Below, in pieces: positions 1 to 39,616 of a DNA stretch of 64,000 bases. Under the pieces are notes generated by a model. That model was not told the DNA's origin. It was given only the letters and a program-made list of their open reading frames with translations, and made no database searches. Both the position numbers and the translations under genes were made by a program. How positions within the stretch are numbered: the first letter of the stretch is position 1; each line of letters opens with the position of its first letter. Source of the DNA: Phycisphaerae bacterium (GTDB lineage Bacteria; Planctomycetota; Phycisphaerae; FEN-1346; JAACEH01); NCBI GenBank assembly GCA_012729015.1, contig JAAYDY010000113.1, positions 12,206-76,205 on the forward strand, read 5' to 3'.

Positions 1-1331
1 CCGAAGTAGCCGTAGCTGCGGGCGCGGCAGCCGCCGCAGTAGTGCTTGTACTGGCAGACCTTGCAGTGGCCGGTGCGGTCCTCGCGGTCGCGCAGCACCT
101 TCAGTAGCGGGTCGTTGAGCCACATCTGCTCGAAGTCGTCCTGTCGGATGTCGCCGATCTCGATGGGCATGAACACGCAGGGCGTGACCTTGCCATTGGG
201 CTGGATCGCGCAATAGCATCGCCCCGCGCCGCAGCCGCCGACGTACTTGGCCAGAATCCGCGTCTTCTTGCCCGACGAGTAGCCGTAGTGCCCCGTGTTG
301 ATCGGCGACTCGGCGTCGCCCAGCTCGATGCACGCGCGGCCGTACTGCGTCGCCGAACTCATCACGGCGATCCTGTCCTCCAGCAGCGTCTTCTGGAGAA
401 TCGCCAGCATCCGCTCGCGCTCGCTCGGCGACAGGTCCGTATCGACGATGCCCTTGCCGCGGCCCGTCGGGATGAAGTTGAAGGCGTAGAACGTGTTCAC
501 TCCGCGGTCAATCGCCCACTGGATGATGTCTTCCAGCTCGTCGATGTTCAGCTTCGTCACGGTCGTGGCCACGCCGGTCTTCATCTTCGGGTTGGCCAGA
601 CAGTTGTCGATGCCTCGGACGGCGGCCTCCCAATAGCCCTTGCCGCCGCGGAAGTGGTCGTGTTTGGCCGCGTCGATCGAATCGAGCGAGATTTCGGTGT
701 AGCCGATGCCACAATCCACCAGCCGCTGGACGTTCTCGGGTGTGCAGAGCGACCCGTTGGTGGCCACGGACATGTGGAATCCCACGTCGGCGGCGTGCCG
801 GGCGGTTTCCCAGAAGTGGCGGCCCATGAGCGGCTCGCCGCCGGAGAACGCCAGCATCGACACGTCCATAGCCGCCAGGCGATCCACGACGGCAATCTTC
901 TCCTCGGGCGTCAACTCATCGTCCAGGGCCTTGTGCGCGTCCTGGTAGCAGTGCTGGCACTGAAAATTGCACGCCTGCGTGAAGTTCCAGACCACCATCA
1001 GCGGCGCGACGAACTGTTGCGGCTCCGTGAGGCCGTAGTGCCCCACGCTGCGGACCGTGTTGACCAGGGCGCGGGCCGTCGGTCCGTGGCCGAAGACGCG
1101 GCGACGCAGCGTGTCGCGCGACGCCCCGGTGCGCTTGCGGATGTACTCGGTGATCCACATTGGCACGGCGAACTTCATGCGCTGCCCAAGGCTCATCTCG
1201 CCCGTGGCATAGGCCCGGAAGAAGTCCGCCAGCGTGCAGCCGCCGTCGCTGCGCCGCCGCGTGATGCGGCGGAACACCGATTGAACGGCCTTCTTGTCCA
1301 GCAACCTGACGACTCGTTCCGGATCAACCAT
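1..1331 (-). CDS. Radical SAM / SPASM-domain protein (AhbD/NirJ/anSME-like), C-terminus beyond the window start
   Basis: Hand translation of the minus strand from ATG at 1331 gives MVDPERVVRLLDKKAVQSVF... with a CxxxCxxC-type radical SAM cluster (FTQACNFQCQHCY), a GGEPL motif and a Cys-rich C-terminal SPASM-like region (CKVCQYKHYCGGCRARSYGYF). It is missing from the ORF track because it runs off the window. The plus ORF 288-1352 is its R/H-rich antisense. Confidence 0.6.
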   Translation of the reverse strand, partial: MVDPERVVRLLDKKAVQSVFRRITRRRSDGGCTLADFFRAYATGEMSLGQRMKFAVPMWITEYIRKRTGASRDTLRRRVFGHGPTARALVNTVRSVGHYGLTEPQQFVAPLMVVWNFTQACNFQCQHCYQDAHKALDDELTPEEKIAVVDRLAAMDVSMLAFSGGEPLMGRHFWETARHAADVGFHMSVATNGSLCTPENVQRLVDCGIGYTEISLDSIDAAKHDHFRGGKGYWEAAVRGIDNCLANPKMKTGVATTVTKLNIDELEDIIQWAIDRGVNTFYAFNFIPTGRGKGIVDTDLSPSERERMLAILQKTLLEDRIAVMSSATQYGRACIELGDAESPINTGHYGYSSGKKTRILAKYVGGCGAGRCYCAIQPNGKVTPCVFMPIEIGDIRQDDFEQMWLNDPLLKVLRDREDRTGHCKVCQYKHYCGGCRARSYGYF

Positions 1332-2158: not shown

Positions 2159-5100
2159 TTATGGTTTCCCGGATTCGTCGTGCTCGGACAGCTCCTTGCC
2201 CAGAGGCGCCGTCGGCACGGGCTTGCCTTGGTCCAGCGCCTCCAGCTTCCGCGGCACCAGCTCGCGGATCGACTGCTCGTCCCGCTGCAAACGCACGTTC
2301 CGTCGCTCCAGCAACTCAGCCGCACGCCGGTACGCCGCACGCGCCTCGTCCCGGCGGTTCAGCCGCACCAGCGTGTCGCCCAGGTGGTCCCAGATCACAG
2401 GGCTCGCCTGCGGGCTCAGACGCACGCTCCGCTGAAGGTACACAAGTGCCTGGTCCAGGCGATTCTGCTTGTAGAGCACCCAGCCCAGGCTGTCCAGCGT
2501 GGCCGACGACTCGGGATTCTCCTGGAGCGACAGGCGGATCATCTGCTCACTCTCGGCCAGCCGCACGCCTTGGTCGGCCCACATGTAGCCGAGGTTGTTG
2601 TTGACGCCGCTGTCGCGCGGGCGCTTCTTCAGAATGGCCTGCATCAACTCTTCGGCCTTCTGCCGCTCGCCGCGGCGGTCGTGCCACGACGCCAGCAACT
2701 GCATCGCCTCGGCGTCGTCCGGCTTGGCGGCCAGCATCGTGTCGATAAGCTTGCGAGCCTCGTCGTACCTCTCCATCGACATCAGCACGTCGGCCCGCAG
2801 TTGCCGGGCGCCCTCCTCGAACGCGGCCATGGCCTCCAGGCGGTCGATGACGGACATCGCTTCGTCCGACGCGCCGCGGGCCTCCAGCAGCATGGCCCGG
2901 TAGTACAGCAGGGCGCCCAACTGTTCCTCGTCCGCCGTCTGGTCCAGGCCGCGATCCAGGGCCAGCAGCGCCCCGTCCACGTCTCCCTGGTCCCGAAGGA
3001 ACAGCGCCATCTCGACGTACGGCCGCGACGACGTGGGGTCGGCCTCGATCGATTCCTCCATCATCGCGCGGGCCTCTGCCGTGCGACCAATGCGGGCCAG
3101 AACGCCCGACAGATTGTACCGCGACCCGTTGTCGCCCTGGTTCAGCTTCAGAATCGTGCGATACGTCATGATCGCATCCGCGTCGCGATCCACCATCTCG
3201 TAGATCCGCGCCATGCGACGGAAGAACACGCTTTTCCACCCGAGGCTGTCCAGCCGCTCCACGGCCTCGCGCGATGCGTCCAGCGCATCCATCAGGCGAT
3301 CCAAGCGGATCAGCACGGCCGTCAGACGCTCGTACCCGCGCGTGAACCCCGGGCTCACCTCCAGCAGCCTGCGGAAATCCTCGGCCGCCGCCGCCGGATC
3401 GTCCACCTGGGCCACCATCCCCAGCACGAATGCCGGCCCGGGGCCCGACCGCAACTCGTCGGCCAGCAGCGTGCGCAGCTCGGTGAGCACGGCCCGGCGA
3501 TCCTCGATCGTGTCGATGAAGTCCGCCAGTTGCCGCACCATCGCGTCGAGCTGCTCGATCTGCTGTTCCTGCTCGTCGGCCTCGCGCCGCAGCCGTTGGA
3601 ACTCCTCCGGCCCCGTGTCGTCCCTCGACTGGAGCCGCAGCAGCCGTGACTGCGCACGCCAGTACTGTGCCTCGCAGTCCTTCTTCTCCGAGACGGCCTG
3701 TGCGTACAGCTTGAGCACGTGCGCCGGCTGCCGCCCGGTCTGATAATAGGCCAGCAGGCTCTTGCGTGCCGCCCCGACCACCACCGGATCGGACGACACG
3801 ACCAACTCCTCCAGGAGCTTTGCGCCTTCGTCGCCACGACCCATCTGGATCAGCTTCTCGCCGAGCAGCCGCGTAACGACGGCCAACCCCGGCTGCGCCT
3901 CGTGGAACTCGCGGAACCGCTTCAGGAACATCTCGTCGTCGCCCAGCTTGTCGCAGACCTGTTTCAGCAGCTCGTAGCTCTCGGCGTCCGTCGGCCATCG
4001 CCGCTGCACGGCCAGCGCCAGCTTCAGGGCCGCCGCGGCGTCGCCCTTGGTCAGCAACTCGGTGATCGTCACGGGCATCGAGCTGTCGGCTACGCGGCTG
4101 GGCAGACGCGGGTCGGCTCCGTCGAGCACCGCCTCGATCATCGTCACGCCCGCCTCCACGTCGCCGGTCCGCAACAGCTCCTGGCCCAGCAGCATCCGGA
4201 TCACGCTCAGCCCCGGGTGCCGTTCGGCCAGTTCCCGGAACGTCTGGATGAACCCTTCGTGATTGTTCGATTGGCCATACACCCGGGCCAGCAGATGATA
4301 GGCGGCCTCGTCATCCGTGCGCCGCCGCTGAATCTCCAGCGCCAGGTGCAGCGCCAGGTCGTTGTGCTGGTTGTTCAGCAGCCACAGCACCGCCGACGGG
4401 CCGAGACCCGGTTTCTCCAGGACGCCGGTCACGTCCTTCAGCAGGGCGACTGCCTTCGCCGGCTCCTTCACGCGCATGTAGAGCTGCACCGTCCGCCCGA
4501 CCAGCACGTGCAGAAACTGCGGATCGACCATGCGCGCCAGTTCGGCGTCGCGCTGCATCGCCGCCGGCGACTTGTCCAGCCAGCGGGCCAGGCGGTCGTA
4601 TGCGGCAGCCTCCTCGGCCATGTTCTTCCGCGATGCGTGGATGCGGCCCAGAAGGTAGAGCGACAGCCCCACGAAACGGTCTGATGCCGCGTCCTTCGAT
4701 TTCTCGATCACCTGGCGGAAGCAGTCGGTCGCCTTGTCATAATCGTTCTGGTTCAGGTGATGCCTGCCCAGCCCGTAGAGTGCCTCGGTGTCGTCCGGGT
4801 CGGCGGCCAGGACTTGGGCGTAGAGCTCCTGCGATTTGGCGGCGTTGCCCTTCTGCTGGTACACGTCCGCCAGCTCGCGCAGAATCAGCGAACTGCCGGG
4901 ATCCAGCCGGGCAGCCTCTTCGAGTTCGCGGATGGCCTCGTCGAATCGCTCGGCGGCGATGTGCTCGCGCGCCAGGGCGTAGTGGTACACGGCCTGGGCT
5001 TTGTCCTCGTCGGACACGTCGGGGCGGGGGGCTGCCGGCTCTGGCGGTTTCTCGGCGGCGGGCGGCTCGGCATTGTTCTGCCCGGCGCCGGTCGTCGGCG

Positions 5101-32829: not shown

Positions 32830-33130
32830 CGTGTGAGTGTGCCACGGCGGGTCTTGCCCGCCGTGCCCATCCGGAGGAGCCCCACGGAACGCGGAGCAAG
32901 CGGTCCTCTGGCGCCGCTGTACAGATCGTCCCCTGCACATGACGCCGTGAACGTTTGAGAACGACGTAGCGCATCGCACGGCGGGCCTGCGGTCCGAGAC
33001 TGTCCGACAATTCGCCGTGCGTAACATACCGTGAAATATGGCGATACGACACCACGGGCGTAGGGTGGCTGCTTGCAGCCACGCGGAAGGGCACGGAGAC
33101 TTGCCCATGCCTGACGGGGCAGGCATGGCA
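32830..33130. repeat. Cluster of GC-rich hairpins (REP-like) between convergent flotillin and PIG-L genes
   Basis: It includes GTGCCACGGCGGGTCTTGCCCGCCGTGCC at 32839-32867 (a family copy), GTAGGGTGGCTGCTTGCAGCCACGCGG and CCATGCCTGACGGGGCAGGCATGG stem-loops. Confidence 0.6.
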
Positions 33131-33881: not shown

Positions 33882-34353
33882 GGTGCTCTCCGCGCGGCCG
33901 GGCGGGGCCTCGGTTCTGCGGCTGTATGGCCGGCCGCAAGCGATTCTACCCACCCACCCACGCCCCACAAGGGGATTCCTGACGGGCCACGCACGCCCGT
34001 GCATGTTGTGGGGCAGCCAGGACGCCACACCCCGGGAGGGGGGCTGCCCGGATCCCTTCCCCGCGGGAGGCTATCCCCGTGTGTGGGGGGGGCAGGGCGG
34101 GAGGCAGGAAAACGTGACAGGAAAACGCGACAAGCGGTTTGACATGGAACGGGGTATCGCGTATTGTTCCTTATGTTGCGAGTGGGGATTGAGGGACCGG
34201 GGGCCGCGGCAGTTCTTGCCGCCCAGCGATTCTGCGTTTCCGTCCCGATTTTGAAGAGTTGATGCGTTTCTTCGGCGGCTCCACGTTGGTGGCGTCGTCG
34301 CGTGTCCGTTTCGGGCCACGGTGCGACTACGGTTCTCGGGGGAGGGGCAATCC

Positions 34354-35100
34354 ATGAAGTGGTCACTTGCGAAGCGTGCGGCGGCATCCTGGGCGATGGC
34401 CCTGGCGGTTCTTGTTGCAGCCACGGCGGCCCAGGCCGACATCGTGATCGACGAATTCAGCGAGCGGACGTCCCCGTGGTGGCCGGCAGCGCTCAGCGCC
34501 GGCGGGGCCATCGGCATCACCGACACCGGCCTGACCACGGTCCCGGGCGGCGTTCGCACCACCTACCTGACGTATTCGACAGGGGACATCCCCGGGCTCG
34601 ATACGGTCGGGGCCTACATCTTCATCGCCGCCGGTCCGCCGGCGGTGGACCTTCTGGAGTACTCCAGCACGACCGGCGCCGTGGGCGGCCTGTCCGTCCG
34701 CTATGCCGGCGCATCCCAGGGGGCCCTGGTCCTGGACCTGAGCGGCGCGGGTTTCCTGCGCATCGACCTGGCCGGCTACGACGCCCCCGGCAGTCAGCCC
34801 ATGCCATTCTCCGTCCTGCTCATCAGCGACCATGGCGGCGCCAACCAGCAGTCGGTGAACCTGCCAGGGCAGGTCGTCGCGGCCGGGGCGCAGCCGCTGT
34901 TCATCGCACTGAACTCCGTCCCCAGCAACGTCGATTTCGCCAACATCAACCTCCTGGAGGTCAGCTTCTACGACCTTCCCAAGGGGACCGACTTCCGCAT
35001 CGACCGCATCGTGGCCACGGCCATTCCCGAGCCGGCCACGGTCGCCCTGCTGGGCCTCGGCCTCGGAACGCTCGCGCTCGGCCGCCGCAGAAAACGCTAG
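34354..35100 (+). CDS. PEP-CTERM sorting-domain secreted protein
   Basis: The signal peptide MKWSLAKRAAASWAMALAVLVAATAAQA and the C-terminal PEPATVALLGLGLGTLALGRRRKR (PEP motif, TM helix, basic tail) are present. A Shine-Dalgarno precedes the ATG at 34354. Confidence 0.8.
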   Translation: MKWSLAKRAAASWAMALAVLVAATAAQADIVIDEFSERTSPWWPAALSAGGAIGITDTGLTTVPGGVRTTYLTYSTGDIPGLDTVGAYIFIAAGPPAVDLLEYSSTTGAVGGLSVRYAGASQGALVLDLSGAGFLRIDLAGYDAPGSQPMPFSVLLISDHGGANQQSVNLPGQVVAAGAQPLFIALNSVPSNVDFANINLLEVSFYDLPKGTDFRIDRIVATAIPEPATVALLGLGLGTLALGRRRKR

Positions 35101-35871: not shown

Positions 35872-35949
35872 CGGGGTGTAGCTCAGTTTGGCTAGAGCGC
35901 CTGGTTTGGGACCAGGAGGTCGCAGGTTCGAATCCTGTCACCCCGACCA
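35872..35949 (+). tRNA. tRNA-Pro (anticodon TGG), CCA encoded
   Basis: The cloverleaf was folded by hand: acceptor CGGGGTG/CACCCCG, D-arm GCTC-AGTTTGGCTA-GAGC, anticodon arm CCTGG-TTTGGGA-CCAGG (anticodon TGG), T-arm with TTCGAAT loop, discriminator A and CCA. Confidence 0.9.
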
Positions 35950-36188: not shown

Positions 36189-36530
36189 ATGGAAACCCAA
36201 ATCGCGGCGCAGGATCTCGTGTACGACGACGGGGAGATGGCAATCGCGCTCGTGCAGCGTCCGTCCGACAGTTCCGGACCGCACCTGGCCTTGCGATGGC
36301 TTGCGCCCCAGCCGTGTGTTGACAGGGACGGGAAAGAAGTCTGCACCACAAACCTCATGGGAGGGGAAACCGATTGGTTCATCGTTCCTTTCTCACTCGC
36401 GGTTGGGATTGCCAGAACTCTGATTGAGCAGAAAGCGGCAGGACTTGGCAATTTCAACAACGACGGCTTCGCCAAGATGGTGTCTTGGCTCGTCGGTCTT
36501 GACCAACTCCAGGACGCCATGTGCTACTGA
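36189..36530 (+). CDS. Hypothetical protein (113 aa), island-borne
   Basis: It has a balanced amino-acid composition, unlike the R/S/P-rich overlapping frames, and moderate GC3 of about 70%. No family is recognised. A REP-like element starts right at its stop codon. Confidence 0.35.
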   Translation: METQIAAQDLVYDDGEMAIALVQRPSDSSGPHLALRWLAPQPCVDRDGKEVCTTNLMGGETDWFIVPFSLAVGIARTLIEQKAAGLGNFNNDGFAKMVSWLVGLDQLQDAMCY

Positions 36531-36625
36531 CGGCGGGTGGCCGGGCGGAGGCGGGGGAAGGGGAGACGTGCCACGGCGGGTCTTGCCCGCCGTGCCGATG
36601 GGCAGGAATCGTTCGGAGTGCGGCG
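36530..36625. repeat. Roughly 95-bp dispersed repeat, copy A (ACGGCGGGTGGCCGGGCGGAGGCGGGGGAAGGGGAGAC-GTGCCACGGCGGGTCTTGCCCGCCGTGCC...), followed by the GTAGGGTGGGGCCCCCGGACCCACGCGG hairpin at about 36690
   Basis: A near-identical copy is at 38590-38695. The core is a 9-bp-stem hairpin CACGGCGGG-TCTTG-CCCGCCGTG. Confidence 0.8.
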
Positions 36626-36934
36626 CCGTGGGCAGGTGGGTCCTCCGGACCCATTGCATGGACTTGAGAATCAGCGGGTAGGGTGGGGCCCCCGGACCCA
36701 CGCGGGACGTTGCGGTAGCGCGGCCGGGTGCGGGGATGTCCTGCAGGCCCATGACGCGCGATTGGCGGGCTATGGCGTCGGTGGAGCGCAGGGGCAGGCT
36801 CTCCCTCATGGTTGCGACCTTCGACCGTCGGACCGGGTCGCCTGCGAGTTGCCCACTGGGACCGAGTGGACGCCGTCCGACGAGCGAGTCTCATCCCGCG
36901 TGGTTCCGGGGGGGGCATACCACAGGAGGGGAAA

Positions 36935-36980
36935 AAGGGTATACTGTCCCCGATAGTAAGGGTATACTGTCCCCGATAGT
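36935..36980. repeat. Tandem 2 x 23 bp AAGGGTATACTGTCCCCGATAGT (right half of the palindrome GGGGACAGTATACTGTCCCC)
   Basis: Read directly from the sequence. Its inverted partner is tandemly repeated at 38535-38586. Confidence 0.85.
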
Positions 36981-37142
36981 ACGTGGTGCCGCGCTGGTAC
37001 CACGGGATGGCATTAGAAAAATGTCGATGACGATGAGCCGTCTGGAGCACGCCAGCCCAGCCAGCCACGATTTCTTTCTGAAGTCTTGTGGCCCATGGTC
37101 CGATATTGATGTAGAATAACGGCGTCCACTGGAGGGGACACA

Positions 37143-37346
37143 ATGGCCATACGCAAGAAAAATGAAGCGACCAAGCCGTCCAAGAAGACCGCCGAAGCAC
37201 TTCTGAAAGAAGCTATGCGCCATCCCGGTGTGGCCGAGGTAATGAAAATCTACGGCGACCTTCAGGAGGTTGTGCAGAGTGCGGCCCCCTACGTTGCTGC
37301 TATGGACGAGAAGCCCGTGCTACTCGTCTCAACATCGTCTGACTAA
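37143..37346 (+). CDS. Hypothetical small protein (67 aa), first gene of the low-GC cassette
   Basis: A GGAGGGG Shine-Dalgarno lies 7 nt upstream. It is 17 nt upstream of the protease gene and shares its low GC. The protein is Lys/Ala/Glu-rich with no recognised family. Confidence 0.5.
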   Translation: MAIRKKNEATKPSKKTAEALLKEAMRHPGVAEVMKIYGDLQEVVQSAAPYVAAMDEKPVLLVSTSSD

Positions 37347-37363
37347 CCGCGATCGGAGGGTGC

Positions 37364-38446
37364 ATGGGTGACTGGGGCGAAGTCCTGGAAGAGCTTACAG
37401 AGTCTGCCAAGCAAAACAACGGGCGTCTTCAGTTTGACCTCATACGACGGAAGTACCTAACGCTGCTTGCCGAGCATACGGGAAGAAGCACGATCCTCTA
37501 TGCCTCAAAGTTTACACAGCCTACCCAACAGCCCATTGGCCAGTTTGTGACGATTTCTGATGGCGACCTTCAGGGCATCATGACGGTCATCCATAAGCTT
37601 CCAGGAAAGAAGCTGGACCTCATTCTTCACAGTCCCGGCGGTTCCCCCCAAGCAGCAGAAGCGATTGTTTCGTACTTGAGGTCGCGCTTTTCACACATCA
37701 GAGTCATCGTTCCCCACCTGGCGATGTCTGCCGCGACCATGATAGCTTGCGCTGCCGATACCGTCGTTATGGGTGAGCACTCGTTTCTCGGACCGATTGA
37801 CCCTCAACTCGTTTTCAATGCAGGCGTGGTGCCAGCGGAGGCGATTCTCGATCAGTTTGATCTGGCCAAGAAGGAGTGTGTCGACCCTAAGAATCTGGGA
37901 GCGTGGATGCCCATGCTTCCGCAGTATGGGCCTGCACTATTAGTGCAGTGCCGTCATGCGCTCGACCTCGCAAGGCAATTGGTCGAAGGCTGGTTGCGTA
38001 CGTACATGCTGAAAAGTGATCCCCAAGGACCTGCGAACGCCAAGGCAATTGCCGATTGGCTTGGCCAACATGGACACTGGAAGAGTCACAGCCGTCACAT
38101 CCCACGCGAGGAACTGAGGAATAGGGGCCTGAGAATTGAAGACCTCGAAAAAGACAACAAAGCGCAAGACCTAATCCTGTCAGTGTTTCATGCCACAACC
38201 CACACGCTACAAGCGAGTACCGCCGTGAAGATTATAGAGAACAATCTCGGAAGGGCGTACATCAACCATTACAGCACGGCTCAGGCGAAAGCAACAGCCC
38301 CTTCGCAACCAGAAACACCGTCTCCTGCTTCACCCCTAACCCCGAAGAAGAGCAAGAAGAAGCCCGGCCGCAGAACCACGAAGAAGGTTGCACCCAAATC
38401 GGCAAAGGGCCAGAAGGGCCGTGTACAAAAGAAGAGCAAGAGCTAA
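37364..38446 (+). CDS. SDH/S49-family Clp-fold serine protease with Lys-rich (histone H1-like) C-terminal tail
   Basis: LILHSPGGSPQAAEAIVSYLR matches the SDH-family H[ST]PGG motif of the ClpP/crotonase fold, as recalled from memory. The candidate catalytic Ser is in PHLAMSAATMIACAAD. The C-terminal 45 aa are PKKSKKKPGRRTTKKVAPKSAKGQKGRVQKKSKS. GC is visibly lower than the surrounding genome. Confidence 0.65.
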   Translation: MGDWGEVLEELTESAKQNNGRLQFDLIRRKYLTLLAEHTGRSTILYASKFTQPTQQPIGQFVTISDGDLQGIMTVIHKLPGKKLDLILHSPGGSPQAAEAIVSYLRSRFSHIRVIVPHLAMSAATMIACAADTVVMGEHSFLGPIDPQLVFNAGVVPAEAILDQFDLAKKECVDPKNLGAWMPMLPQYGPALLVQCRHALDLARQLVEGWLRTYMLKSDPQGPANAKAIADWLGQHGHWKSHSRHIPREELRNRGLRIEDLEKDNKAQDLILSVFHATTHTLQASTAVKIIENNLGRAYINHYSTAQAKATAPSQPETPSPASPLTPKKSKKKPGRRTTKKVAPKSAKGQKGRVQKKSKS

Positions 38447-38534
38447 ACGCCGGGTGCCATTGCCGCTTGGGCGATGCTTCAGAGCGACGGCATTCCACCC
38501 GCCGGACCGTCAACAACTGCGGCGACCAGAATCG

Positions 38535-38586
38535 GCCAATGGGCCAATGGGGACAGTATACTTGGGCCAATGGGGACAGTATACTG
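38535..38586. repeat. Tandem GGCCAATGGGGACAGTATACT repeats (left half of the palindrome GGGGACAGTATACTGTCCCC), inverted partner of 36935-36980
   Basis: GGGGACAGTATAC occurs at 38549-38561 and 38572-38584. GGCCAATGG occurs three times. Confidence 0.85.
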
Positions 38587-38589
38587 ATT

Positions 38590-38695
38590 ACGGCGGGTGG
38601 CCGGGCGGAGGCGGGGGGAGGGGAGACTCTGTGACTGTGCCACGGCGGGTCTTGCCCGCCGTGCGGACGGGCGGGGATCGTTCAGGGGGCGGCGC
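38590..38695. repeat. Roughly 95-bp dispersed repeat, copy B
   Basis: It aligns to 36530-36625 apart from a 9-bp insertion (TCTGTGACT) and a few substitutions. Confidence 0.8.
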
Positions 38696-38776: not shown

Positions 38777-38803
38777 CACGGCGGGCAAGACCCGCCGTGG
38801 CAC
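38777..38803. repeat. Inverted-orientation copy of the CACGGCGGG-loop-CCCGCCGTG hairpin element
   Basis: CACGGCGGGCAAGACCCGCCGTGGCAC is the reverse complement of the family core. Confidence 0.7.
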
Positions 38804-39304: not shown

Positions 39305-39616
39305 GTGAGCGAATCGTGCGCGTCTTGGGCGGGTTGGCGTCCTCCCCCGAAACTCTACCGCATCGGAGAGGTGGTTCGTTACAGCGGCTTCTCGCGGCAG
39401 ACGGTCCACAACTACACGACGATGGGCCTCATCCGGGAAGAGGAGCGGACCGAAGGCGGTCACCGCATGTACGGCGAGGACGTCTTTCGCCGCCTTGCCG
39501 TCATCAAGGCCCTCAAGGGCAACAAGACTCTCGGTCAGATTCGACGGATTCTGGAAGATGAAACGTCCGAGGCGTCGGTAGCCGCCATCCAGGCGGCCGG
39601 CGCAGCGGTTCGGTAG
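39305..39616 (+). CDS. MerR family transcriptional regulator
   Basis: It has the HTH LYRIGEVVRYSGFSRQTVHNYTTMGLI followed by a coiled-coil. Confidence 0.7.
   Translation: MSESCASWAGWRPPPKLYRIGEVVRYSGFSRQTVHNYTTMGLIREEERTEGGHRMYGEDVFRRLAVIKALKGNKTLGQIRRILEDETSEASVAAIQAAGAAVR

Follow-up and report, generated by a model that had tools for sequence, protein, structure and literature searches.

The closest described counterpart of the gene pair analysed here is FS_HP_SDH_sah, a two-gene system listed by DefenseFinder. This system reportedly comes from the work of Fillol-Salom et al. 2022 (Cell) on phage-inducible chromosomal islands (PICIs), where it is reported to protect against phages. The pair analysed here lies in 64,000 nucleotides (nt) of a Phycisphaerae bacterium (contig JAAYDY010000113.1, positions 12,206 to 76,205; this whole stretch is called the window below). 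A gene for a protein of 67 amino acid residues is followed there by a gene for a predicted SDH-type Clp-fold serine protease of 360 residues. In a preliminary description of this DNA, the combination was thought to be undescribed. Since FS_HP_SDH_sah has been catalogued with the same architecture, the combination is not new; judged by architecture, the window pair may be the same system as FS_HP_SDH_sah or a sister of it. The gene name FS_HP_SDH_sah also appears in PMC13532340. Beyond this one DefenseFinder gene name, nothing was found in the literature on PF01972, the Pfam family of the protease, in defence. The paper on the Tai system (PMC11364771) mentions neither protease nor peptidase, SDH or ClpP, and has no tie to this module. 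The breadth of the family, its strict partner, its association with Hma defence loci, and the tails of the protease are undescribed as far as I found in the literature.

The module has the following parts, with coordinates given for the window:

37132-37136, + strand: GGAGG before the ATG of the 67-residue partner gene
37143-37346, + strand: gene for the 67-residue partner, an open reading frame (ORF) with a relative just before the protease gene in each of the 81 loci
37355-37359, + strand: GGAGG before the ATG of the protease gene
37364-38446, + strand: gene for the 360-residue SDH-type Clp-fold serine protease, predicted from the ORF, PF01972, phrog_11747, and an AlphaFold (AF2) model
37727-37729, + strand: codon of the candidate nucleophile Ser122 in the motif AMSAAT, invariant in the family alignment and placed by alignment with ClpP
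38279-38443, + strand: Pro-rich linker and Lys/Arg-rich C-terminal tail of the protease (residues 306-360), predicted to be disordered, with a predicted local distance difference test score (pLDDT) of mostly about 50 or lower

The two genes are co-oriented, and 17 nt lie between the stop codon of the partner gene and the start of the protease gene, as had been described from the ORFs. The low GC content that had been noted by eye was borne out by computation, and the earlier observations on the sequence itself were confirmed throughout. The GC content of the cassette, from 36935 to 38586, is 0.549 against 0.663 for the whole window, which is the lowest value among 1247 sliding stretches of 1652 nt (z = -4.5). 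The two cassette genes have a GC content at third codon positions (GC3) of 0.60-0.63, whereas five genes nearby have 0.85-0.89. The cassette is foreign DNA, well delimited and recently acquired, in a variable region downstream of a tRNA-Pro gene.

PF01972 (SDH_protease, ClpP-like SDH-type serine proteinase) matches the protease with 83 bits, against a gathering threshold of 31.3, over residues 57-175 (profile positions 68-181 of 286). It was also found that the protease matches phrog_11747, a family of unknown function, over its full length (4e-86), and that the Pfam model CLP_protease gives a weak match whose span includes Ser122. The NCBIfam equivalog NF047768 (Clp_like_SDH) scored 90.1 bits, below its cut-off of 250 bits, and the relatives from Klebsiella and from a Gordonia phage likewise stay under that cut-off. 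The protein had been assigned to an SDH/S49 family; the SDH half of the assignment stands, while the S49 half does not, as the SppA/S49 model TIGR00706 reached 18.1 bits against a cut-off of 155. A profile search of the PDB with the protease gave nothing at E <= 0.01. In the AF2 model, which was built from 26 relatives, residues 1-305 are confident (mean pLDDT of 84), and the chain is disordered beyond them. A Foldseek comparison of this model gave ClpP, the 1510-N stomatin-specific protease, and SppA as the nearest solved folds (E about 1e-3, template modelling (TM) score about 0.3 on the query). Among viral models, the 'serine dehydrogenase proteinases' of giant viruses came first (E 4e-10, TM 0.48-0.65), with prohead proteases ranking lower. 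The Ser motif, the AF2 model, and the fold matches agree with one another, and they point to an SDH-type Clp-fold enzyme.

The two motifs picked out in the preliminary description, HSPGGS (residues 89-94) and AMSAAT (residues 120-125), proved to be invariant or nearly so among the relatives. Ser122 aligns with the catalytic Ser of Streptococcus pneumoniae ClpP (1y7o) with a weak E-value. D146 as well as H139, H236, H242, H276, and H280 are invariant in the protease family and are candidate triad residues. A helical C-terminal domain of about 130 residues is added to the Clp core and holds invariant Cys and His residues. In total, three Cys and four His residues outside the Clp core (residues 129, 172, 196, 236, 242, 276, and 280) are invariant in the 26 diverse relatives; they lie mostly in this helical domain and could form a metal site or a redox switch. 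The protease is cytoplasmic, with neither a membrane anchor nor an ATPase partner. As to its Lys-rich tail, which had been described as a possible tether to DNA, the tail itself is there (17 Lys or Arg residues in the C-terminal 55 residues, all in the disordered part). As a defining trait it did not hold up: a strongly basic tail is found in 33 of 199 relatives (17%), the closest relatives among them, and a Pro-rich tail in 125 of 199. The Lys/Arg-rich tail is an optional, lineage-specific appendage and no hallmark of the family.

The 67-residue protein has a basic disordered N-terminus, two helices (residues 14-25 and 30-54), and a Ser/Thr-rich C-terminal tail (VSTSSD). The two helices are joined by an invariant Pro-Gly (..LL.EAL.R-PGV.EVM.VY..W..), and the AF2 model of the protein shows a two-helix hairpin only. 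In the family, the C-terminal tail is 46% Ser/Thr against 10% elsewhere in the protein. A single-sequence search with the protein found itself alone. A profile search of 1.84 billion representatives revealed 586 clusters at 50% identity, nearly all of proteins of 60-100 residues, with no evident fusion to a known domain among the 586. The small protein has no relative in Pfam, NCBIfam, PHROG, PADLOC, or the PDB, and it carries neither a membrane segment nor a known toxin fold.

Is the small gene a constant companion of the protease gene? I searched a collection of 185,579 species genomes, one genome per species, with a pattern-seeded search that undercounts. It gave 211 stretches encoding a protease relative, 80 of which were kept as loci (labelled L with a number where they are named below, as are other contigs). 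All ORFs around the 80 homologous loci were clustered with BLAST, and a hidden Markov model (HMM) of the small-protein family was then applied. BLAST clustering placed a same-strand ORF of about 70 codons directly before the protease gene in 76 of the 81 loci. In the remaining five, the small gene was recovered with the family HMM, weakly in one of them (L077, E = 0.007). The next most frequent neighbour family occurs in no more than 8 loci. The gap between the partner stop codon and the protease start has a median of 21 nt across the loci, which is consistent with a shared operon. The small ORF, which had been suggested as a possible partner, thus belongs to a real conserved family that is always found with the protease in these loci.

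More than 3100 relatives of the protease were found. In the 80 kept loci, the protease is 48-61% identical to that of the window, and these loci are spread over about 18 or more phyla. They include Planctomycetota, Verrucomicrobiota, Chloroflexota, Alpha- and Gammaproteobacteria, Gemmatimonadota, Acidobacteriota, Latescibacterota, Nitrospirota, Nitrospinota, Armatimonadota, Bdellovibrionota, Ignavibacteria, Saccharibacteria, and others, as well as one Thermoplasmatales archaeon. Such identity over many lineages, together with the deviant GC3 in the window, means that the genes were transferred horizontally. The gene pair is exchanged between very distant lineages.

The strict pairing of the two genes could also be read in another way. 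The small protein might be a cargo that the protease processes, for instance by removing the Ser/Thr tail or the basic N-terminus, to release an active peptide or regulator, so that the two would be a pro-effector and its maturase or a pair resembling ribosomally synthesised and post-translationally modified peptide (RiPP) systems. The conserved helical part would then be leader-like and is followed by a compositionally distinct Ser/Thr-rich C-terminus. Moreover, the related SppA is known for self-processing with C-termini bound in the active sites (PDB 4kwb, which is among the fold matches). However, no gene for a modification enzyme, a transporter, or immunity is conserved nearby, the tail is short and variable in sequence, and the small protein lacks a membrane segment and any known toxin fold. 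I regard a cargo role as improbable.

Several of the relatives lie in phages. In a Klebsiella lambdoid prophage, the pair is found between replication genes and the DUF1367/RusA/antiterminator (nin-type) genes, and its 67-residue partner matches the family HMM (E = 3e-11). In Gordonia phage BeeGee, the protease gene follows a minor tail gene. The layout is similar there, with an unannotated upstream ORF of 58 codons that is undetected by the family HMM (E = 1). A Shewanella Mu-like phage carries the pair at an accessory site, the pair adjoins HicAB in Porphyromonas phages, and it occupies the integrase-proximal end of a Pseudomonas aeruginosa element. In IMG/VR, seven loci carrying the pair were found. 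A distant SDH-type paralogue is present in 20 of 5426 complete Escherichia coli genomes. In the E. coli lambdoid prophage on plasmid pSM107_MCR (L093:3857-4930), it lies right after a cI-type repressor gene, where lambda has rexAB, with a 56-codon ORF directly downstream and none directly upstream. The NCBI annotation pipeline PGAP names it 'SDH family Clp fold serine proteinase'. This paralogue belongs to another subfamily than the window protease. DNA of the Klebsiella pair, whose proteins are WP_032426283.1 and WP_008807825.1, had zero matches in the 5426 E. coli genomes.

Are these genes a remnant of phage head assembly? A ClpP-like prohead protease and a small protein resembling a scaffold or delta domain could have been left behind by a decayed prophage. 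The presence of relatives in phage genomes would agree with this, as would the weak matches to NF045542 (head maturation protease, ClpP-related; 47.3 bits) and to PHROG head-maturation families (1e-8 to 1e-12). On the other hand, the NF045542 score is under its cut-off of 120 bits, and the top structural matches are SDH proteinases rather than prohead proteases. Among the immediate neighbours in the 80 loci, there are zero capsid or portal genes and one terminase gene (L001). Where the gene order is clear, the pair lies outside the head module: it follows the tail genes of BeeGee, and in the Klebsiella prophage it lies within the early/nin region. I consider a head-assembly origin highly improbable.

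A second recurrent context is the Hma defence system, in which HmaA is an SNF2 helicase and HmaB a DUF1156 methylase. In eight loci (L010, L020, L029, L045, L046, L050, L061, and L068), which make up about 10% of the set and belong to several phyla, the pair directly precedes HmaB, follows HmaA, or is enclosed by the two; in most of them, the module is at about 4000-5000. The pair may contribute to Hma systems as an optional component, or it may often be carried along in them as a hitch-hiker. In one of these loci, from the Alphaproteobacteria (L046:3743-6100), a second small-protein gene with an extended C-terminus lies about 2 kb downstream of the first, together with 30-nt direct repeats. 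This arrangement suggests a partial tandem duplication of the module. In further loci, the immediate neighbours are DNA methylase genes, restriction-modification genes of types I, II, IIG, and III, SNF2 helicase genes, transposase genes, ArdC genes, and the one terminase gene. Many other loci have housekeeping neighbours, for example genes for alanine racemase, MurJ, SmpB, and thymidylate synthase. The earlier suggestion of a mobile element with a distribution like that of defence or toxin-antitoxin genes gains support from the accessory sites in prophages and from the Hma and restriction-modification islands.

The explanation I favour, at about even odds, is that the gene pair is a self-contained, horizontally mobile module of the defence or addiction type. 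It is favoured because the pair is invariably close and co-oriented, is promiscuously transferred, and recurs at phage moron sites and in defence islands with no other conserved partner. The protease would be the effector, and the small protein would hold it inactive in uninfected cells. Most likely, the Ser/Thr-rich tail would be laid in the substrate groove of the protease, as an inhibitor or as a substrate with slow turnover. On phage infection, or when the module is lost, the small protein would be removed or titrated, and the freed protease might then cleave phage or host proteins, so that phage production or cell growth stops. The Pro-rich linker and the basic tail may serve as an optional localisation device that binds nucleic acid or another polyanion.

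Several observations weigh against a defence or addiction module. No DNA-binding or antitoxin fold could be recognised in the small protein, and PADLOC 2.0, which had been proposed as a check, has zero models that match the protease or the 67-residue protein. The proteolytic activity and the Ser-Asp-His triad are predictions, and the inhibitory role of the Ser/Thr tail is pure conjecture. The 150 immediate neighbours with a Pfam match are mostly ordinary metabolic or envelope genes, and the cassette's own neighbours in the window are not defence genes. These neighbourhoods suit an ordinary pair outside defence, in which a regulatory or quality-control protease is encoded with its small adaptor or anti-adaptor and is carried on mobile DNA by chance. 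Clp-fold proteases commonly act with small adaptors, and many of the loci do lie between housekeeping genes. Against such a pair stands its patchy spread, as the 211 stretches come from a very large genome collection, even if the search undercounts. The identity of 48-61% across phyla contrasts with the deviant GC3 of the window genes, and phage moron sites as well as Hma and restriction-modification loci have acquired the pair repeatedly. An ordinary adaptor pair seems to me an improbable account.

The surroundings of the cassette in the window contain the following features:

35872-35949, + strand: tRNA-Pro(TGG), found by ARAGORN (Rfam tRNA model, 70.6 bits)
36530-36626, + strand: GC-rich dispersed repeat with a 23-nt hairpin core, CACGGCGGGTCTTGCCCGCCGTG, in direct repeat with 38590-38695; context, not part of the module
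36935-36980, + strand: left array of two exact tandem 23-nt units, each with the 13-mer GTATACTGTCCCC, at the drop in GC content
38540-38585, - strand: right array of two exact tandem 23-nt units with the 13-mer inverted, at the return in GC content
38590-38695, + strand: another copy of the GC-rich dispersed repeat, which begins 4 nt past the right array; context

The tRNA-Pro(TGG) gene lies 1.19 kb upstream of the cassette, in agreement with the distance of about 1.2 kb given before, and is the upstream edge of a variable island of lower GC content. On two contigs from other samples (L082 and L083), the homology to the window begins at 35937, inside the 3' end of the tRNA gene, and the sequence upstream is wholly different. 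A degenerate fragment of a tRNA 3' end is found on one of them (L082:3340-3380) at the junction with the window homology. Since the contigs differ upstream of 35937 and L082 has this tRNA fragment, the comparison suggests that tRNA-Pro is an integration hot spot whose inserts differ between strains. On another contig (L085), the homology breaks at 36673, within the GC-rich repeat. No attR-like copy of the tRNA 3' end that would delimit the island was found in the window. A site lacking the cassette was not found either: the cassette is present at 8 of the 8 places that could be read from 15 contigs carrying the identical protein. An Rfam scan of the window gave the tRNA as the sole match, and a promoter and terminator scan gave signals no better than those of shuffled sequences.

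The preliminary description was right about the inverted repeats that bracket the cassette; two 23-nt units were found on each side. In the 64-kb window, GTATACTGTCCCC occurs at four places only, all at the cassette, where 0.32 chance matches with up to 2 mismatches are expected. Are these arrays part of what moves? The 13-mer is present in 0 of the 80 module loci from other species, and it occurs elsewhere around unrelated genes. When both flanks were compared by k-mers in those loci whose flanking sequence was long enough, inverted repeats of a similar kind turned up solely in L024 and L064. Inverted repeats as a feature of the module were therefore rejected, the 13-mer being missing at the other module loci. 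It was revealed that six unrelated metagenome contigs have the 13-mer in arrays with a period of 23 nt, the core being exact and the spacers different. On one of these (L095:25-1238), it lies at 25-37 (-) and, in four copies, at 788-874 (+), around a gene for a 236-residue Y1_Tnp protein. The best NCBIfam match of this protein is the 'REP-associated tyrosine transposase' (RAYT) model NF047646, where REP stands for repetitive extragenic palindrome (67 bits, below the cut-off of 80). The 13-mer also brackets an SNase-family nuclease gene (L102:1290-2249), abuts a GNAT gene (L099, 2694-2729) and a BrnA gene (L097, 6486-6550), and forms an array on a contig without the module (L101:17-85). The arrays were also rejected as operators of the small protein, because L095, L097-L099, L101, and L102 have them but lack the module, and no other module locus has them.

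The arrays differ in folding from canonical REPs, as a palindromic hairpin in each unit is absent. For the left array and the L095 array, folding does not exceed that of shuffled sequences (z = +0.8 and +1.9); for the right array it does (z = -3.2), but only by the pairing of its two tandem units through a GTATAC palindrome. The 13-mer arrays are best seen as a transposase-associated repeat of the host lineage and not as part of the module; they would belong to the repeat repertoire of that lineage.

It is conceivable, nevertheless, that the 1.65-kb segment is a non-autonomous cassette whose ends are the inverted 13-mer arrays and which depends on a host-lineage Y1 transposase, of the IS200-like or REP-associated type, acting in trans. 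Both arrays coincide with the boundaries in GC content. In addition, the same 13-mer flanks the L095 Y1_Tnp gene in inverted orientation, brackets the L102 nuclease gene, and abuts the L099 GNAT and L097 BrnA genes. However, no target-site duplication is visible at the cassette, an empty site was not found, and the window has neither such a transposase gene nor any RAYT gene. The arrays have no local hairpin, unlike REPs and the ends of IS200/IS605 elements, and the L095 transposase match stays under its NCBIfam cut-off. Because the motif is missing from the 80 loci, trans-mobilisation would explain at most movement within one lineage. I judge it unlikely. Two bolder ideas may be named, each a long shot. 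In one, the Ser/Thr tail of the protein of about 70 residues plugs the protease, which would make the pair an immune switch and also an optional fourth component of Hma. In the other, this module and the L102 nuclease gene would be cargo of a REPIN-like element that has the 13-mer arrays as its ends and is mobilised in trans by a domesticated Y1 transposase, a kind of mobility not described so far.

The GC-rich repeat is a different element. Its core, CACGGCGGGTCTTGCCCGCCGTG, has four copies in the window (32843-32865, 36572-36594, 38641-38663, and 38777-38799) and folds better than shuffled sequences (z = -3.2). It is a perfect GC-rich hairpin inside intergenic units of about 100 nt and looks like a classical REP-type repeat, distinct from the 13-mer arrays. 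Three neighbouring genes may also be mentioned. Between the tRNA gene and the cassette lies an ORF of 113 codons and intermediate GC content (36189-36530, + strand; GC 0.58, GC3 0.69), to which Pfam, NCBIfam, PHROGs, and PADLOC gave no match. Several contigs that carry this region have it among their called genes, and it may be of foreign origin as well. A gene for a MerR-family regulator (39305-39616, + strand) follows shortly after the island; its GC content is host-like, and PADLOC matches it weakly to mad1 of the candidate 'mads' system (4e-7). Upstream of the tRNA gene, a gene for a PEP-CTERM-type protein (34321-35100, + strand) has a weak match to the Pfam family PEP_exosort_dom and also a host-like GC content.

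If the module is an immune or addiction system, the family is a large one, with more than 3100 proteases and 586 partner clusters; it reaches across the majority of bacterial phyla and several groups of phages and includes at least one archaeon. Its effector would be a protease with a Clp fold under the control of a very small partner, and no mechanism has been worked out even for FS_HP_SDH_sah. Concrete starting points for experiments are the strict pairing, the conserved Ser/Thr tail, Ser122 as an invariant residue, and the insertion that recurs between HmaA and HmaB. Separately, the 13-mer arrays could help to clarify what REP-like repeats and their transposases have to do with freshly acquired genes in Planctomycetota-type genomes.

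How does the locus compare with known systems? The 13-mer arrays resemble the REP/RAYT system in being a short motif in intergenic arrays that flanks a Y1 transposase gene in inverted orientation on L095. They differ from it in having no palindromic hairpin, a tandem period of 23 nt, and only four copies in 64 kb, and the L095 transposase scores under the cut-off of the RAYT model. With ClpP, SppA (S49), and 1510-N/NfeD, the protease shares a Clp/crotonase-like fold and an oxyanion-type Gly-Gly loop followed by a nucleophile Ser at the position equivalent to that of ClpP. The similarity to these enzymes is distant and at the level of the fold only, while the window protease has its extra helical C-terminal domain of about 130 residues. 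As in type II toxin-antitoxin systems, a small upstream gene lies close to the gene of a larger enzyme (17 nt here; median of 21 nt), but the small protein has no fold of the helix-turn-helix (HTH), ribbon-helix-helix (RHH), AbrB, or Phd type. A promiscuous horizontal spread through prophages and defence islands is shared with these systems and with protease-based abortive infection, such as Lit and the ImmA/ImmR-type pairs; unlike the latter proteases, that of the window has a Clp fold and is not a zincin.

The nearest comparisons are with the SDH proteinases themselves. The NF047768 proteinase, encoded after cI in the E. coli lambdoid prophage, belongs to the same Pfam family, has the same fold, and is likewise a rare accessory gene of prophages. 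In contrast, it has about 30% identity to the window protease over part of the length, and its 56-codon neighbour is downstream, with none directly upstream. FS_HP_SDH_sah comes closer: a hypothetical protein and a Clp-fold protease of PF01972 (formerly SDH_sah) are encoded by adjacent, co-oriented genes on mobile or phage-related DNA, a likeness of architecture alone. The window copy differs in lying outside any satellite or prophage, and its family adds Pro-rich or basic tails and a recurrent position inside Hma loci.

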